Source: Thiobacillus sp. (GTDB lineage: Bacteria > Pseudomonadota > Gammaproteobacteria > Burkholderiales > Thiobacillaceae). Taken from it: DNA of 64,000 bases. Below the pieces are notes generated by a model, which was not told the DNA's origin, searched no databases, and saw only the letters and a program-made list of their open reading frames with translations. The DNA lies in NCBI GenBank assembly GCA_044227195.1, contig JBGAFQ010000002.1:7375-71374 (forward strand), read 5' to 3'. A program made the position numbers and the translations under genes. Positions 20,675-30,196 of this stretch are shown here, one piece after another; within the stretch, counting starts at the first letter, position 1, and each line of letters starts with the position of its first letter.

Positions 20675-22102
<1,428 letters not shown>

Positions 22103-22130: not shown

Positions 22131-22979
22131 ATGGCCATGCCCGGTCAGCTCATGTTCGCCCGCCGGCTGGGGCCGACGGGACGGCTCGCGATCTGGATGG
22201 CGGTCGGCATCGCCTGCGTGGTGCTGGACGCGCGTTACCGGGCGATGGACGAACTGCGCGGCGGGCTTGCCGCGCTGCTCCAGCCGGTGCGCGTGGCCTT
22301 GCGTGCGCCGGCCGACGTTGCCGCCGAGCTCGGCGGGTTTTTCACCCGCCATCGACTGCTGCAGAATGAGCGCGACACCCTGCTGGCCGAGCGGGCGCGA
22401 CTGCGGATCGACGCCGGCAAGGCGCAGGATCTGGCGCGCGAAAATGCCGAGCTGCGTGCGCTGCTCGCCGTGCGTGCGCGGCCGGGCCAGCAGACTGTGC
22501 ACGCGGCGCTCCTGTATCAGGGCCACGACTGGTTCGCCCAGCGCATCACGCTCGACCAGGGCGCGACGGCGGGCCTGGCGAGCGGACTGCCGGTGGTCGA
22601 CGCAGCCGGCCTGATGGGGCAGTTGAGCCGCGTCTACGCGGGAACGAGCGAAGTCACGCTGGTGACCAGCCCGGAACAGCTGACGCCGGTGTATATCGAG
22701 CGTACCGGCCAGCGCGGACTTGCCGCCGGCGTCGGCCACGGCCGGCTCGAGTTGCGCTACATGCCGACGCAGACCGACGTGCGCGTCGGCGACCGCCTCC
22801 TCACCTCCGGCATCGACCTTGTCTATCCCGCCGCGCTGCCGGTGGCGCGCGTCAGCCGCATCTCCCGTTCGCAGTCCAGCCCCTATCTGCGCTTGGACTG
22901 CCTGCCGCTCGCCGGCCTGGATCGTGCGCGCGCCGTGCTGGTGTTGAGGACGCAATCGTCGCAGGGAGCGCAGCGGTGA
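22131..22979 (+). CDS. mreC: Rod shape-determining protein MreC
   Basis: TM helix, coiled coil (ENAELRALL), VGDRLLTSG; follows mreB. Confidence 0.9.
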   Translation: MAMPGQLMFARRLGPTGRLAIWMAVGIACVVLDARYRAMDELRGGLAALLQPVRVALRAPADVAAELGGFFTRHRLLQNERDTLLAERARLRIDAGKAQDLARENAELRALLAVRARPGQQTVHAALLYQGHDWFAQRITLDQGATAGLASGLPVVDAAGLMGQLSRVYAGTSEVTLVTSPEQLTPVYIERTGQRGLAAGVGHGRLELRYMPTQTDVRVGDRLLTSGIDLVYPAALPVARVSRISRSQSSPYLRLDCLPLAGLDRARAVLVLRTQSSQGAQR

Positions 22980-23476
22980 GCGTGGACACCCGCGAAACCG
23001 GAAGCTGGCGCCGCATCCTCGGCACGCTGGCGCTCGCGGTGCTGCTCACGCAGTTGCCGTGGGGCGGCTGGGCGCTCATCCTGCGCCCCGATTTCATGCT
23101 GGTTGCCGTCCTGTTCTGGGTCTTGCACCAGCCCGCGCGCATCGGCTTCGGTACCGCATTCGTGCTGGGGCTGCTGGCCGATTTCCAGGACGGCGCGGTG
23201 TTCGGCCAGCATGCCATCGCGTACGTCGTCGGCGTGTACATGGTGCTGTTCCTGCGGCTGCGCCTGCTGCGGTTCGACCCCCTGCGGCAGGCGGCGCAAC
23301 TCTTCCCCATCCTGCTTCTCGTGCAGCTGACGGTGATGCTGATCGGCTGGCTGGCGGTCCATCCGCCGGAGGGGCTGGCGATCCTGCTGCCGGTGCCGGT
23401 CAGCACCGCGTTGTGGTTCGGCATCGCGCTGTTCCAGCGCGCCTGGCACGGCAAGGGGCTGCGGGACAGCGAATGA
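22976..23476 (+). CDS. mreD: Rod shape-determining protein MreD
   Basis: RPDFMLVAVLFW, GLLAD..G...GQHA; synteny. Confidence 0.9.
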   Translation: MSVDTRETGSWRRILGTLALAVLLTQLPWGGWALILRPDFMLVAVLFWVLHQPARIGFGTAFVLGLLADFQDGAVFGQHAIAYVVGVYMVLFLRLRLLRFDPLRQAAQLFPILLLVQLTVMLIGWLAVHPPEGLAILLPVPVSTALWFGIALFQRAWHGKGLRDSE

Positions 23477-25365
23477 GTCGCGCCACCCCGCTCAAGAACC
23501 TCGACCGCGAGCTGGCCCGTTTCCATGGTCGCCTGAAAGCCGGTGCGGTCTTCGTCGCGTTGCTGGCGGCGGCCTTGCTCGGGCGCGGTTTCTATTTGCA
23601 GATCGTGCAGCACGACTATTACATCCAGCGCGCCGAGAGCAACCGCATCTCGCTGGTGCCGGCGGCGCCGAACCGCGGCCTGATCCTGGACCGCAAGGGA
23701 CGCATCCTGGCGGAGAACTATTCCGCCTACACGCTCGAACTGACGCGCGCGCAGACGCACGATATCGAGGAAACGCTGGCCGAGGTGGGCAAGCTGATCG
23801 AGATCACGCCCGGCCAGTTGCGGCGTTTCCGCCGCCTGCTGGCCGAATCGCACGAGTTCGAGACCGTGCCGCTGAAGAGCAAGCTGACCGACCGGGAGGT
23901 GGCGATCCTCGCGGCCAACCGCTATCGCCTGCCCGGCATCGAGGTGAAGGCGCGACTGTTCCGCAATTACCAGGCTGGGCCCGGAATGGCGCACGTGGTG
24001 GGTTTCATCGGCCGCATCAACGACCGAGACCTGAAGACGCTGCGCGCAAGCGGGCGCGAGCAGAACTACAAGGGCAGTGTGCACATCGGCAAGACCGGGC
24101 TGGAGCAGAGCTACGAAACCCTGCTGCACGGCCGCACCGGCTTCGACCAGATGGAAACCGACGCCAGCGGGCGCGCGGTGCGCATGCTGTCGCGCATTCC
24201 GCCGGTACCGGGCAAGGATCTGCGACTGTATCTCGACCTCGACCTGCAGGCGGTGGCGGAACACGCCTTTGGCGATTATCGGGGCGGGCTGGTGGCGCTC
24301 GACCCGAAAACCGGCGGGGTACTGGCGCTGGTGTCCAAGCCGGGCTTCGACCCCAACCTGTTCATCGACGGCATCGATCCGGAGGCCTGGAAGGCGCTCA
24401 ACGATTCGCCCGAGCGGCCGATGGTCAATCGCGCGCTGCGCGGCATCTACCCGCCGGGTTCGACGATCAAGCCGCTGATGGCGCTGGCGGGGCTGGAACT
24501 GGGCGTGCGCAAGCCTTCGGACACGATCGTCGATCCCGGGTTTTACAGCCTGCCCAACAGCCGCCACCAGTACCGCGACTGGAAAAAGGGCGGCCACGGC
24601 GTGGTCGACCTGCGCAAGTCGATCGCGCAGTCCTGCGACACCTACTATTACCGTCTGGCGGTGGACATGGGCATCGACCGCATGCACGACTACCTGGCGA
24701 AGTTCGGCTTCGGGGAAAAATCCGGCATTGACCTCGACGGCGAGTCCCCGGGCCTGCTGCCGTCGCGCGACTGGAAACAGCGGCGCTGGAAGAAACCCTG
24801 GTACATGGGCGAGACGGTGATCGCCGGCATCGGCCAGGGCTACCATCTGACCACGCCGCTGCAACTGGCTACGGCGGTGGCGATGCTCGCCAACGGCGGC
24901 AAGCGCATCGAGCCGAGGCTGGTCGAGGCGGTGCGCGATCCGCTTACCCACGTGTGGCAAGTGCAGGCGCCGGTGATACGCGGGCAGGTTGCGATCAAAC
25001 CCGAGAATCTCGCGGTGGTGCGCGAGGGCATGATGGACGTGATGCGGCCGGGTGGCACCGCGTCCGCGGCTGCGGCAGGCGCGCCCTACGCCATTGCCGG
25101 CAAGACGGGCACCGCCCAGGTGGTCGGGATCAAGCAGGGGGCGCGTTACGAAGAAGGCAAGCTGGCGCAGCATCACCGCGACCACGCCCTGTTCATCGCC
25201 TACGCACCGGCCGACGACCCGAAAATCGCCATCGCGGTGCTGGTCGAAAACGGCGGCCATGGCGGTTCCACCGCCGCACCCATCGCGCGCGCGGTGTTCG
25301 ACTATTACCTCACCGGGAAGCGCCCCGGCTCGATGAAACTGGAGGCTGACGATGCCGCGGACTGA
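23473..25365 (+). CDS. mrdA: Penicillin-binding protein 2
   Basis: PPGSTIKP (SxxK), SCD, KTGTAQ all intact. Confidence 0.95.
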   Translation: MSRATPLKNLDRELARFHGRLKAGAVFVALLAAALLGRGFYLQIVQHDYYIQRAESNRISLVPAAPNRGLILDRKGRILAENYSAYTLELTRAQTHDIEETLAEVGKLIEITPGQLRRFRRLLAESHEFETVPLKSKLTDREVAILAANRYRLPGIEVKARLFRNYQAGPGMAHVVGFIGRINDRDLKTLRASGREQNYKGSVHIGKTGLEQSYETLLHGRTGFDQMETDASGRAVRMLSRIPPVPGKDLRLYLDLDLQAVAEHAFGDYRGGLVALDPKTGGVLALVSKPGFDPNLFIDGIDPEAWKALNDSPERPMVNRALRGIYPPGSTIKPLMALAGLELGVRKPSDTIVDPGFYSLPNSRHQYRDWKKGGHGVVDLRKSIAQSCDTYYYRLAVDMGIDRMHDYLAKFGFGEKSGIDLDGESPGLLPSRDWKQRRWKKPWYMGETVIAGIGQGYHLTTPLQLATAVAMLANGGKRIEPRLVEAVRDPLTHVWQVQAPVIRGQVAIKPENLAVVREGMMDVMRPGGTASAAAAGAPYAIAGKTGTAQVVGIKQGARYEEGKLAQHHRDHALFIAYAPADDPKIAIAVLVENGGHGGSTAAPIARAVFDYYLTGKRPGSMKLEADDAAD

Positions 25366-26452
25366 TCGCGGGATCCTGCGCGGGCTGCGCCACCTGGATC
25401 CCCTCCTGCTGGTGCTGGTGCTGGCGGTGCTGGCCATCAGCGTGGCGGTGGTGGCCAGCGCCTCGGGCCAGAGCCCGGCGCGCATCAGCGGCCACCTCGT
25501 CAACATCGGACTGGCCCTGACGCTCATGGTCGTCATGGCCAACGTGCCGCCGCATCTGCTGTCCAAGGTGGGACCGCCGCTGTATGCGCTCGGCGTGGTG
25601 CTGCTGGTCGGCGTGGCCCTGTTCGGCGAAATCCGCAACGGCTCGCGGCGCTGGCTGGATTTCGGCGTGATGGCCTTCCAGCCTTCGGAACTGCTCAAGC
25701 TGGCGCTGCCGCTGATGCTGGCCTGGTATTTCCAGCGCAACGAGGCCCAGTTGAACGCGAAGCATTTTCTGGCGGCGGGCGCCCTGCTGCTGGTGCCCTT
25801 CCTGCTGATCCTGCGCCAGCCCGATCTGGGCACCGCGCTGCTGATCGGCGCCTCGGGTTTCTATCTGCTGTTTTTCGCCGGCCTGTCGTGGAAGGTGATC
25901 CTCGCCGGCGGCGTCGCTCTGGGCGCCAGTCTGCCAGTGGCGTGGCGGTTCATGCACGATTACCAGCAGCAGCGCGTGCTGACGCTGCTCGACCCGTCCT
26001 CCGATCCGCTGGGCGCGGGCTACCACATCATCCAGTCGACCATCGCCATTGGTTCGGGTGGCCTGTTCGGCAAGGGCTGGATGGAGGGGACGCAGAACCA
26101 GCTAGACTTCATCCCCGAGCGCACAACCGATTTCATCTTCGCCGTGTTCGGCGAGGAATTCGGCTATGTCGGTGCGATCCTGCTGCTGGCGCTGTACCTT
26201 GCCATCGTCGCGCGCGGGCTGGCCATCGCGGCGCGTGCGCCGACGCAGTTCGGCCGCCTGATGGCGGCGACGATTTCGCTCAACCTGTTCACCTACGTGT
26301 TCGTCAACATGGGCATGGTCTCGGGCATCCTGCCCGTGGTGGGCGTGCCGCTGCCGCTGATGAGCTACGGCGGCACCGCGCTCATCACCCTGCTGCTGGG
26401 CGTGGGCATCCTGATGAGCGTGGCGACGCATCGCCAGCTCAACAAAACCTGA
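25352..26452 (+). CDS. rodA: Rod shape-determining protein RodA
   Basis: FQPSELLK, QPDLGT, PERTTDFIF, SYGG. Confidence 0.95.
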   Translation: MPRTDRGILRGLRHLDPLLLVLVLAVLAISVAVVASASGQSPARISGHLVNIGLALTLMVVMANVPPHLLSKVGPPLYALGVVLLVGVALFGEIRNGSRRWLDFGVMAFQPSELLKLALPLMLAWYFQRNEAQLNAKHFLAAGALLLVPFLLILRQPDLGTALLIGASGFYLLFFAGLSWKVILAGGVALGASLPVAWRFMHDYQQQRVLTLLDPSSDPLGAGYHIIQSTIAIGSGGLFGKGWMEGTQNQLDFIPERTTDFIFAVFGEEFGYVGAILLLALYLAIVARGLAIAARAPTQFGRLMAATISLNLFTYVFVNMGMVSGILPVVGVPLPLMSYGGTALITLLLGVGILMSVATHRQLNKT

Positions 26453-26469: not shown

Positions 26470-27306
26470 ATGAAGCATTTTGTCCTACTGGGTGCGCTGA
26501 TGCTCGCCGCGTGCGGCGTCAATCCCCCCGCACCGTCCAAGCCCGCCACGTCCGCCAGGCAGGCGCCGCCCGCCGCCACGGCGAAAGGCGGCGGCTACTA
26601 TCTCGACGACGGTCCCGAGGCCAATCCGCCGGCCAATCTGGAAGCAGTGCCCGATGCCGTCCCGCGCGACGAACCGCTGCACCGCTTCGCCAACCGGACC
26701 TATGTGGCGCTCGGCACCACCTACACGCCGCAGACCGAACGCGGCACGTATACGGAAGAAGGCCTGGCGTCATGGTACGGCCGCCGTTTCCACGGCAAGA
26801 AAACCGCCTCGGGCGAGCTGTACGACATGTACGCGATGACTGCCGCGCACCCCACCCTGCCGATTCCCAGCTATGCACGCGTCACCTCGCTCGGTACCGG
26901 CAAGTCCGTGGTCGTGCGCATCAACGACCGTGGGCCCTTCCACAGCAGCCGCATCATCGACCTGTCCTACACGGCCGCCTACAAGCTGGGATTTCTGGGA
27001 AGCGGCAGCACGCGCGTGCGCGTGGAAAGCCTCGATCCTGCCGCGTACGACACGCAGGGTACGGCCCTGCGCGAAGGCATCTACCTCCAGGTTGGCGCCT
27101 TCGCGCGCGAGGACAATGCGCGCGCCCTGCTGGAGCGGCTGAATCGTGCGCTCGACCTGGGGGACGAACAGTCGCGCGTGGTGCTGGCAGGCGCGCTGCA
27201 TCGTGTGCAGTTGGGTCCGTATCCCAGCGACGATGCGGCGCGCGCCGATCGTGAACGGGTGCGGGAACGCCTCGACCTGAACGCGGTCCTGGTCAGACGC
27301 GATTGA
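26470..27306 (+). CDS. rlpA: Septal lytic transglycosylase RlpA (DPBB + SPOR)
   Basis: Lipobox LAAC, ASWYG, TAAHPTLP, RINDRGPF, LQVGAF SPOR domain. Confidence 0.93.
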   Translation: MKHFVLLGALMLAACGVNPPAPSKPATSARQAPPAATAKGGGYYLDDGPEANPPANLEAVPDAVPRDEPLHRFANRTYVALGTTYTPQTERGTYTEEGLASWYGRRFHGKKTASGELYDMYAMTAAHPTLPIPSYARVTSLGTGKSVVVRINDRGPFHSSRIIDLSYTAAYKLGFLGSGSTRVRVESLDPAAYDTQGTALREGIYLQVGAFAREDNARALLERLNRALDLGDEQSRVVLAGALHRVQLGPYPSDDAARADRERVRERLDLNAVLVRRD

Positions 27307-27325: not shown

Positions 27326-28441
27326 ATGAAACGATACTGGCTGGCGTTGTTGCTGGCGTTGTCCGCTCCGGCGTGGGGCACGCCGACAGGCGTGAGCGCA
27401 CGCGCCTGGGTGCTGATCGACCAGGCGAGCGGGCGCGAACTGGCCGCGCATCAGGCGGATCTGCCGCTGCCGCCCGCCTCGCTCGCGCAGCTGATGACGG
27501 CCTACGTGCTGCTGGGCGATCTAAAGAACGGCAAGCTCTCGCTCGCCGAGACGGTGAAGGTGCCCGAGACAGCGACCAAGGCCGACGGCGCCCGTGTCTT
27601 TCTCAAGGCCGGCGATCCGGCCAGCGTCGATACCCTCATCCAGGCCATGCTGGTCGAATCGGCGAGCGACGCGGTGCTGACCCTGGTGACGGCGACGGAC
27701 GGCGGCGAGGCGGACTTCGTCGAACGCATGAACCGCGAGGCCCGGCGGCTCGGCATGACGCGCACGCGCTTCGTGAACGCGACCGGGCTGCCCGCACCCG
27801 GACAGCAATCGAGCGCGCGCGATCTGGCCATCCTGGCGCGCGCCCTGATCCGCGATTTTCCCGATCGGCTGGCCTGGTTCGCGCAACGCGAGCTCGCCTA
27901 CAGCGGCCTCACCTACTACAACGGCAACCGCCTGCTGTGGCGCGACGCCACGGTGGACGGCCTGAAGGCGGGGCGTAGCGCGGAAGCCGGCTATTGCCTG
28001 ACCGCGTCGTCGAAGCGCGGCGACCAGCGCCGCATTGCCGTGGTCCTGGGCGTGCGCGGCGACGCGCAGCGCACGCAGGACGCGTTGAAGCTGCTCAACT
28101 ACGGTTTCGAGAATTTCGACAGTGCGCTGCTTTATCGCGCCCAGCAGCCCGTCAAGGTGGTGAAGCTGTATCGTGGCGCGCGTTCCACGGTGAGCCTCGG
28201 TTTCCTGCAGGACTTCCACCTGCTGGCGCCGCGCGGGTCGCTCGGCCGGATCAAGGCCGAGATCGTGACGCGCCAGCCGGTGGTGGCGCCGATCAGCCGC
28301 GGCCAGCAGCTCGGCACGCTGCGGCTGAAACTGGACGACCAGATTCTCGGCGAATACCCGCTGGTGGCCCTGCACGACGTGAGTGTGGCCGGCGTGCTCG
28401 GGCGCGGCTGGGATTCGATCCGGCTGATGTTCGCACGATGA
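27326..28441 (+). CDS. D-alanyl-D-alanine carboxypeptidase homologue (PBP5/6) with degenerate active site
   Basis: S11 family layout and dacA position, but the motifs read S52-L-A-Q55, S112-A-S114 and K214-A-G. Confidence 0.85.
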   Translation: MKRYWLALLLALSAPAWGTPTGVSARAWVLIDQASGRELAAHQADLPLPPASLAQLMTAYVLLGDLKNGKLSLAETVKVPETATKADGARVFLKAGDPASVDTLIQAMLVESASDAVLTLVTATDGGEADFVERMNREARRLGMTRTRFVNATGLPAPGQQSSARDLAILARALIRDFPDRLAWFAQRELAYSGLTYYNGNRLLWRDATVDGLKAGRSAEAGYCLTASSKRGDQRRIAVVLGVRGDAQRTQDALKLLNYGFENFDSALLYRAQQPVKVVKLYRGARSTVSLGFLQDFHLLAPRGSLGRIKAEIVTRQPVVAPISRGQQLGTLRLKLDDQILGEYPLVALHDVSVAGVLGRGWDSIRLMFAR

Positions 28442-29301
28442 TCGCCTGGCTGAACGGCAACTTCATTCCGCTTGCCGAGGCGCGCGTGTCCGTGCTCGAC
28501 CGTGGCTTCGTGTTCGGCGACGGCGTGTACGAGATCGTGCCGGTGTATTCGAAGCGGCCGTTCCGGCTGGACGAGCACCTGCGTCGCTTGCAACACAGCC
28601 TGGATGGCATCCGGCTCGCCAATCCGCATGGCGTCGACGTCTGGCGCGGCTTGATTCTCGATCTGATCGCGCGCCAGGATTTCCCGGACCAGTCGCTCTA
28701 CATCCAGGTCACGCGCGGGACGCCGGATCAAACCCAGCCGCCGCGCGACCATGCGTTTCCCCGGGGGGTCGCGCCCACGGTGTTCCTGTACGCGCAGCCG
28801 TTGGTGACCGCGACGACGGAACAGAAAGCCGCCGGCGTGGGCGCGATCACCGCCCCCGATCCGCGCTGGCAGCATTGCGACATCAAGGCGATCTCGCTGC
28901 TGGCCAACGTGCTGATGCGGCAGCGGGCGGTGGACGCGGGTTGCGCCGAGACGGTGATGCTGCGCGACGGCTTCCTCGCAGAAGGCGCGGCGAGCAACAT
29001 CTTCGTGGTGCAGGACGGGGTCTTGCTAACGCCGCCGCCGTCCCCACATATGCTCGCGGGCATCACCTACGACGTGGTGCTCGAACTGGCCGCCGCGCAC
29101 GGTATTCCCCGTGAAGTGCGCCCCGTGACCGAAGCCGAGCTGCGCGCCGCCGACGAACTGTGGATGACCTCGTCGACCCGGGAAATCATGGCGATCGTGA
29201 CGCTCGACGGCGCCCCCGTCGGGGCCGGCGTCCCGGGGCCGGTGGCACGCCGGATGGATAGGCTGTACCAGCAATTCAAACAGGACGTGATGCGCGCATG
29301 A
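28438..29301 (+). CDS. dat: D-amino acid aminotransferase (PLP fold IV)
   Basis: [31 protein letters not shown]. Confidence 0.9.
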
Positions 29302-29564
29302 GCGAACAGGAAACCCTGCTGACCTTCCCGACCGACTTCCCCATCAAGATCATGGGCGAACGGCGCGACGACTTCGCCCAGACCATGGTCGAGGTCGTGC
29401 GGCGTCACGCGCCGGATTTCCAGCCCGAGACGGTCGAGATGCGCGCTTCGTCGAGCGGAAACTATCTCTCGGTGACCTGCGTGGTGCGCGCCACCTCGAA
29501 AGACCAGCTCGACAACCTGTACCGCGAGATCACTGCGCATCCGTGGGTGAAGATGGCGCTCTAG
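29298..29564 (+). CDS. ybeD: YbeD/DUF493 protein
   Basis: [24 protein letters not shown]; synteny before lipB. Confidence 0.9.
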
Positions 29565-29587
29565 TGGTGAACGGCGAGCAGCAAGCA

Positions 29588-30196
29588 GTGAGCGGTGGGC
29601 TGATCGTGCGGCATCTGGGGCGCGTCGCGTACGAACCGACCTGGCGGGCGATGCAGGACTTCACCGCGCGGCGCGATGCCGACACGCCGGACGAACTCTG
29701 GCTGCTGGAGCATCCGCCGGTCTACACCCAGGGGCAGGCGGGCAAGCCGGAACACCTGATTGCGCCGACCGCCATCCCCGTGCTGCCCATCGACCGCGGC
29801 GGGCAGATCACCTACCACGGGCCGGGACAGGTCGTGGCCTATCTGCTGATCGATCTGCGGCGGCGCGGCTACGGCATCCGCGAGCTGGTGACGCGCATGG
29901 AGCAGGCGGTGATCAACCTGCTGGCACGGCACGGCGTCGCCGCCGAGCGCATGGCCGGCGCGCCCGGCGTCTACGTCGCCGGTGCGAAAATCGCCGCACT
30001 GGGGCTGCGGGTGAAGCGCGGTTGCACGTATCATGGTCTTGCGCTCAACGTGGATATGGACCTGGGCCCGTTCGCGGCGATCAATCCCTGCGGCTATCCC
30101 GGCATGGCGGTCACGCAGTGCCGCACTCTGGGCGTGGCTTTGTCGATGCCGCAGGCGGAGCAGGCGCTTACTGTTGCGCTGCAGGCAGCGTTATAG
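29588..30196 (+). CDS. lipB: Octanoyltransferase
   Basis: [31 protein letters not shown]. Confidence 0.95.

Follow-up and report, generated by a model that had tools for sequence, protein, structure and literature searches.

A PBP5-type DD-carboxypeptidase homologue in the rod-shape operon of Thiobacillus, probably catalytically dead but retained under selection

Cell-wall biology has yet to explain why bacteria carry several redundant DD-carboxypeptidases and which roles these have besides removing D-Ala. A gene of Thiobacillus sp., here called dacA*, puts the question in an unusual form. It lies among the rod-shape genes and encodes a homologue of penicillin-binding protein 5 (PBP5, DacA) in which none of the three catalytic motifs reads as it should, and its reading frame is intact. 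We analysed dacA* in a stretch of 64,000 nucleotides of assembly GCA_044227195.1 (hereafter the window, whose positions are used below). An earlier, sequence-only reading had proposed that the product is a pseudoenzyme with a scaffolding or peptidoglycan-binding role in the elongasome operon.

The gene (27326-28441, + strand) is an uninterrupted open reading frame for a 371-aa protein (P0001) that we classify, on its translation, Pfam matches, alignment and structural model, as a PBP5/DacA-type pseudo-DD-carboxypeptidase. A signal peptide, MKRYWLALLLALSAPAWG, recognized from sequence features only, occupies residues 1-18 (27326-27379, +) and is followed by a Peptidase_S11 domain (PF00768, 199 bits, residues 22-244) and a PBP5_C beta-sandwich domain (PF07943, 68 bits, residues 264-352; 28115-28381, +). 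The chain closes with a 16-residue amphipathic helix (28391-28438, +) that is a predicted membrane anchor; the 14-residue hydrophobic moment of this tail ranks among the highest 5% in the protein, and residues 358-370 form a helix in the AlphaFold model. Thus the signal peptide, C-terminal domain and amphipathic tail described in the sequence-only reading are all present. The model itself (pLDDT 86, pTM 0.80) superimposes on PBP5/6 structures with TM scores of 0.78-0.90, and phmmer aligned the protein end to end with PDB chains of Pseudomonas aeruginosa PBP5 (4k91, E 2e-78) as well as Escherichia coli PBP6, PBP5 and DacD. Identity to the class C type-5 PBPs of MEROPS family S11 (E. coli PBP5 and PBP6, P. 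aeruginosa PBP5) is 33-40%. Like E. coli PBP5 (DacA) and PBP6 (DacC) and P. aeruginosa PBP5 (4k91, 1nzo, 3it9), the dacA* product has two domains, a signal peptide and an amphipathic C-terminal anchor. Its scores of 226-243 bits against the NCBIfam DacA, DacC and DacD equivalogs fall below the cut-offs of 610-765, but these models are enterobacterial and the shortfall carries little weight alone.

The surroundings of dacA* are those of a rod-shape operon, with every gene on the + strand: mreB (21059-22102), mreC (22131-22979), mreD (22976-23476), mrdA encoding PBP2 (23473-25365), rodA (25352-26452) and rlpA, with DPBB and SPOR domains (26470-27306), which ends 19 nt upstream of dacA*. Downstream lie dat, a class IV (D-amino-acid type) aminotransferase gene (28438-29301), ybeD (DUF493; 29298-29564) and lipB (29543-30196). 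The ATG of dat overlaps the dacA* stop codon (ATGA, 28438-28441), and four-base overlaps also join dat to ybeD (29298-29301) and mreD to mrdA (23473-23476). Such tight junctions are consistent with translational coupling along the operon; a consensus scan around dacA* gave no convincing internal promoter or terminator. PBP2 carries canonical STIK, SCD and KTGT motifs, as had been claimed from the letters alone. The position beside rlpA, ybeD and lipB is also that of the PBP5 gene in Pseudomonas and E. coli.

The active site is a different matter. At the SxxK motif the protein has S52-L-A-Q55 (tcg ctc gcg cag, 27479-27490, +), which retains the Ser nucleophile and exchanges the general-base Lys for Gln; SxN has become S112-A-S114 (27659-27667, +) and KTGHT has become K214-A-G-R-S (27965-27979, +). 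In a residue alignment with 4k91 and E. coli PBP6 (3it9), these stand exactly opposite SLTK, SGN and KTGH/KTGT, the aligned pairs from the phmmer comparison with the PDB being pasltK/paslaQ, qSgNda/eSaSda and glKTGht/glKAGrs (canonical/dacA*). The three altered motifs first noticed in the DNA are thereby confirmed. Beyond them, further cleft residues that are invariant in canonical enzymes have been replaced. In the omega-like loop, A89-R-V91 (27590-27598, +) has lost the canonical Ser and Met; Y197-Y-N-G200 (27914-27925, +) takes the place of Q-x-N-R, with Q197Y and G200 both departing from the canonical residues; and R217 follows the degenerate KAG.

Counting along the PBP6 chain (Ser40, Lys43, Ser106, Asn108, Arg194, Lys209) gives the equivalences with E. 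coli PBP5: Q55 corresponds to Lys47, S114 to Asn112, G200 to Arg198, A215 to Thr214, R217 to His216, A89 to Ser86 and V91 to Met89. In catalysis by PBP5 and PBP6, Lys47 is the general base, and Asn112, Thr214 and Arg198 position the carbonyl and carboxylate of the substrate. Compared with E. coli PBP5 and PBP6 and P. aeruginosa PBP5, the dacA* protein is thus without the equivalents of Lys47, Asn112, Thr214, His216, Arg198, Ser86 and Met89, and neither DD-carboxypeptidase nor penicillin-binding chemistry is to be expected of it. Our literature search found no usable data on PBP5 active-site mutants.

Altered motifs might simply mean a decaying pseudogene, or an error of sequencing or assembly, and the motif changes themselves are what such an explanation has in its favour, and nothing more. 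Its predictions fail across the genus. More than 140 Thiobacillus orthologues of dacA* are intact, nearly all reading SxxQ, SA[SGTV] and K[VA]G, and SxxQ is present in 144 of 144 sequences collected from the dead clade. Among the 120 best database homologues (71-88% identical), 117 have SLTQ, two SLAQ and one SLVQ, and all 120 conform to S-L-[TAV]-Q, [ST]-A-[SGTV] and K-[VA]-G-[RH]. A genome scan with one genome per species gave 464 related stretches; we read the best 80 of these, and each contains one full-length open reading frame, with SLTQ in 78, SLTH in one and SLTK in one. The cultured strains T. denitrificans RG and T. thioparus DSM 505 are among these best 80 loci. By pairwise Nei-Gojobori (NG86) estimates, which are crude in a high-GC genome, the median dN/dS over 248 genome pairs was 0.186 for the dead copy and 0.218 for a canonical paralogue in the same genomes (see below), and dacA* of the window gave 0.17 against its nearest relative. 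Together with the translational coupling of dacA* into a conserved operon, the intact frames and shared pattern in 80 loci and 120 homologues and a dN/dS of about 0.19, which signifies purifying selection, refute a pseudogene or sequencing error; we regard either as close to impossible. Canonical relatives combined with neutral decay of this copy, an outcome that would have told against the pseudoenzyme proposal, are likewise excluded within the genus. On this comparative evidence the dead-copy pattern is fixed across Thiobacillus, under purifying selection as strong as that on the active paralogue.

Three contigs from metagenome-assembled genomes labelled Rhizobium sp., Hyphomicrobiaceae and Sulfuriferula multivorans (L088, L136 and L109) also bear a dead dacA of the Thiobacillus type, with 68-73% identity, and have probably been mis-binned or mislabelled.

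Where selection acts can be read from the alignment. Ser52, Lys214 and Gly216 do not vary among the 120 homologues, and Ser112 is conserved in 90% or more of them. Codons vary synonymously at Ser52 (TCG, TCC or TCA), Gln55 (CAG 86, CAA 13) and Lys214 (AAG or AAA), so the amino acids themselves are under selection. In 43 canonical sequences, 80 columns are conserved at 95% or more. The 144 dead-clade sequences keep 55 of these at the same level, and 17 have a changed consensus residue; the changed columns include K55Q, S80P, S89A, M91V, G113A, N114S/G, A121V, E122T, Q197Y, R200G/A, D211x and T215V/A. The dead clade has also gained invariants of its own, for example P47, L62, R134, R236 and R283. 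When dead and active copies from the same 23 genomes were compared, mean pairwise identity of the S11 domain was 76% in the dead copy and 79% in the active one, and that of the anchor tail 77% and 84%. In contrast, the PBP5_C domain was more conserved in the dead copy (72%) than in the active paralogue (55%). Within the S11 domain of the dead copy, identity dips around the three motif regions. Judged by these identities, constraint has moved from the active site and its motif regions onto the PBP5_C domain, and the membrane anchor has been kept.

How did a dead gene come to occupy this place? At every Thiobacillus locus that we read, dacA* lies between rlpA and dat-ybeD-lipB, and the order PBP2-RodA-RlpA-DacA-Dat-YbeD-LipB is common to Thiobacillus and its sister genera. 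The same position is held by a 42-52% identical copy with SLTK, SGN and KTG[HYF] in 12 genomes from the family's other genera and in seven further families of the order. Gene order thus marks dacA* as the positional orthologue of the canonical dacA of the sister genera, that is, as the ancestral operon-linked dacA of Thiobacillus. In a maximum-likelihood tree the SxxQ sequences (the Q clade) form one group (SH-aLRT 98) whose sister is a pair of deep-branching genomes, G080 and G141; Q clade and pair together sit on a long stem (0.38) nested in the operon clade of the family.

These two deep branches are intermediates. Their copies (G080, L033 3734-5104; G141, L034 4001-5131) retain SLTK and KTG (KTGR in the G080 type), and already have SAS or SAT at the second motif, Ala for Ser and Val or Ile for Met in the omega loop, and Q197F. 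Another locus, L149, combines SLTK with SAS and KAGRS. The intermediates G080, G141 and L149 show that the motifs were lost stepwise. The three substitutions that the sequence-only reading had taken as independent changes are all present, but they did not arise simultaneously. As reconstructed from the extant sequences, SxN and the omega-loop residues were lost before Lys, Thr and Arg.

Loss of the operon-linked active site raises the question of what else might trim D-Ala in these bacteria. A second PBP5-type gene, 38-44% identical to dacA*, was found in 45 of 46 other genomes of the genus (24 of 24 in a first search and 21 of 22 in a further one). All 24 second copies that we read have SLTK, SGN and KTGHT, and in the maximum-likelihood tree the second copies form a separate clade. 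An active dacA paralogue, for which the sequence-only reading had suggested looking, is accordingly present in the relatives. In the nearest of them, G007, the second copy (L036 5983-7182, - strand) adjoins pgaB- and pgaC-like genes and a gene for a 766-aa protein without a Pfam match; it scores 290 bits against Peptidase_S11, compared with 199 for the dead copy. The 100% complete genome of the intermediate G080 has the intermediate copy only and no second PBP5-type copy, which suggests that loss of SxN alone, as in G080, may leave some activity.

In the window's own assembly, which is 90.7% complete, the second copy was not found. However, the 766-aa gene that neighbours it in G007 matches contig C27 of this assembly (G000) from base 3 (bases 3-926). 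A match that begins at the third base of a contig places the second-copy locus at an assembly break, which lies within the 766-aa gene, so absence cannot be claimed, and we do not conclude that the window's genome is without an active PBP5. The pga-like genes that accompany the second copy elsewhere are missing from this assembly too, which likewise does not show them to be absent. The only other S11 protein found there is a 321-aa PbpG/PBP7-like endopeptidase (L002 1390-2355, - strand, contig C41), which is without PBP5_C and has canonical SITK, SDN and KTG motifs. A PBP4-type (S13) gene lies on contig C65, and no VanY-type carboxypeptidase was found in this genome.

Taken together, these data make dacA* probably a catalytically dead D-Ala-D-Ala carboxypeptidase that is retained for a function, most likely as a non-catalytic partner of the wall synthases. 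Carboxypeptidase work would have passed to the second copy once this was present, freeing the operon copy from catalysis, and the operon copy would have kept a catalysis-independent structural or regulatory job at the inner-membrane face of the elongasome. The likeliest such job would be to bind or position PBP2/RodA, or possibly RlpA or other PBPs, through the PBP5_C domain and the anchor. This choice of partners draws on the position in the operon and on data from E. coli. There, DacA and DacC pull down PBP1a, PBP1b, PBP2 and PBP3, mostly via the C-terminal region, and without that region enzyme activity alone fails to rescue certain phenotypes (PMC10269652). The cleft of the dacA* protein, remodelled and more hydrophobic but with Ser52, Gln55, Ser112 and Lys214 kept, may still bind a ligand that it does not turn over.

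That these four residues are kept also feeds two other interpretations. The protein might still be an enzyme whose Ser52 is activated by way of Ser112 and Lys214, forming an acyl-enzyme slowly, working as a sensor or hydrolysing some substrate that is not D-Ala-D-Ala. The conservation of Ser52, Lys214, Gly216 and Ser112 described above, and the synonymous codons at Ser52 and Lys214, speak for it, as does Gln55, which is strictly fixed and shows no drift; retention of Ser is the more telling since other dead lineages have lost their Ser too. Yet the general base is gone, along with the equivalents of Asn112, Thr214 and Arg198, and the third SxN position varies freely among S, G, T and V, which indicates no constraint there; on balance we think an altered enzyme rather improbable. 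Unlikely as well is a substrate trap or lectin, in which the dead cleft would bind pentapeptide stems uncleaved, for example shielding the donor peptides of PBP2 from the active carboxypeptidase. It would suit both the retained cleft architecture and a gene located within the PBP2/RodA operon, but the equivalents of Thr214, Arg198 and Asn112, which bind the carboxylate of the terminal D-Ala and the acyl carbonyl, have become Val or Ala, Gly or Ala, and Ser or Gly. With the carboxylate-binding residues lost, canonical recognition of D-Ala-D-Ala is unlikely. As regards the original proposal, its core, that the elongasome operon retains a DacA without catalytic function, agrees with every check named there that we ran; peptidoglycan binding of the canonical D-Ala-D-Ala kind is the part that does not hold up well.

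In a wider survey we examined the 150 nearest cluster representatives (50% identity). All three motifs are present in 119 of them; about 25 full-length proteins have at least one degenerate motif, and in 13 all three have degenerated. The degenerate representatives include P0131, P0136, P0157-P0159, P0168, P0170 and P0179. A Uliginosibacterium protein reads AMAQ, GAN and ADADV and has lost the nucleophilic Ser as well, an Acidiferrobacteraceae protein reads ELVR, GAN and AAARV, and a protein from a gammaproteobacterial metagenome-assembled genome is a further degenerate example. The Uliginosibacterium-type clade of Rhodocyclaceae (four clusters, 69-91% identical) sits at metH-dac*-ybeD-lipB-lipA (L153 6001-7134; L154 6001-7134). 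From their sequences and neighbouring genes, dead PBP5s appear to have arisen repeatedly in Proteobacteria, the ancestral dacA locus accounting for at least two such cases.

A bolder and quite tentative idea is that type-5 PBPs in general serve peptidoglycan synthases as subunits or positioners, independently of catalysis, so that the ancestral dacA locus could repeatedly turn dead but selected once another carboxypeptidase was available. Thiobacillus, the Uliginosibacterium-type Rhodocyclaceae, Acidiferrobacteraceae and Neisseria might then be independent instances, and the Thiobacillus protein a non-enzymatic part dedicated to the Rod complex. Such a general role is suggested by the stepwise intermediates and by the apparent recurrence in other Proteobacteria.

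Whatever its partner, dacA* represents a natural separation-of-function allele, its catalytic residues gone and selection on it retained, inside a rod-shape operon. It occurs in a culturable genus, represented by T. denitrificans and T. thioparus, and so offers a direct route to studying a non-enzymatic role. The automated annotation 'D-alanyl-D-alanine carboxypeptidase' is probably wrong for the dead dacA* clade. Our literature search returned no report on Thiobacillus PBPs and no systematic description of dead type-5 PBPs. The present analysis adds the stepwise loss through intermediates, the regular company of a canonical second copy, the move of constraint onto PBP5_C, the apparent recurrence of dead copies at dacA-ybeD-lipB, the contig break that explains the missing second copy, and the cultured strains that bear a dead dacA.

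The notion of a dead but retained PBP5 is itself not new. Neisseria DacC is a published precedent (PMC6365954). As PMC6365954 and PMC7012608 describe it (after 2018, Mol Microbiol 109:135), it is a homologue of type-5 low-molecular-mass PBPs, from a betaproteobacterium, that is retained with its motifs lost: SXXK, SXN and KTG are all gone in N. gonorrhoeae, and SXN alone is kept in N. meningitidis. In the same accounts a dacB dacC double mutant loses piliation, a DacC phenotype appears only in combination with loss of another DD-peptidase, and a scaffold role is proposed (PMC6365954, PMC7012608). As far as these descriptions go, dacA* resembles Neisseria DacC in being a full-length PBP5/6 homologue whose active-site motifs are lost and whose gene is retained; unlike DacC, it keeps the Ser nucleophile, has a fixed exchange of Lys for Gln and coexists with a canonical PBP5 paralogue. 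The cellular settings differ as well. Neisseria are cocci that have lost the elongasome, whereas Thiobacillus keeps mreBCD-mrdA-rodA with the dead gene inside. In the sister genera and in seven other families of the order the motifs are canonical, and the Q clade branches from among these, which argues for an origin independent of Neisseria DacC.

Degenerate homologues of cell-wall enzymes serve as regulators elsewhere, the LytM factors EnvC and NlpD being examples. In Helicobacter pylori, Csd2 is such a homologue, acting with Csd1 (PMC5053510). What we propose for dacA* is alike in kind: a peptidoglycan hydrolase paralogue that no longer works as an enzyme stays on as a partner or regulator. 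EnvC, NlpD and Csd2, however, belong to a different fold and family, the M23 metallopeptidases, and their mechanisms of activation are known.
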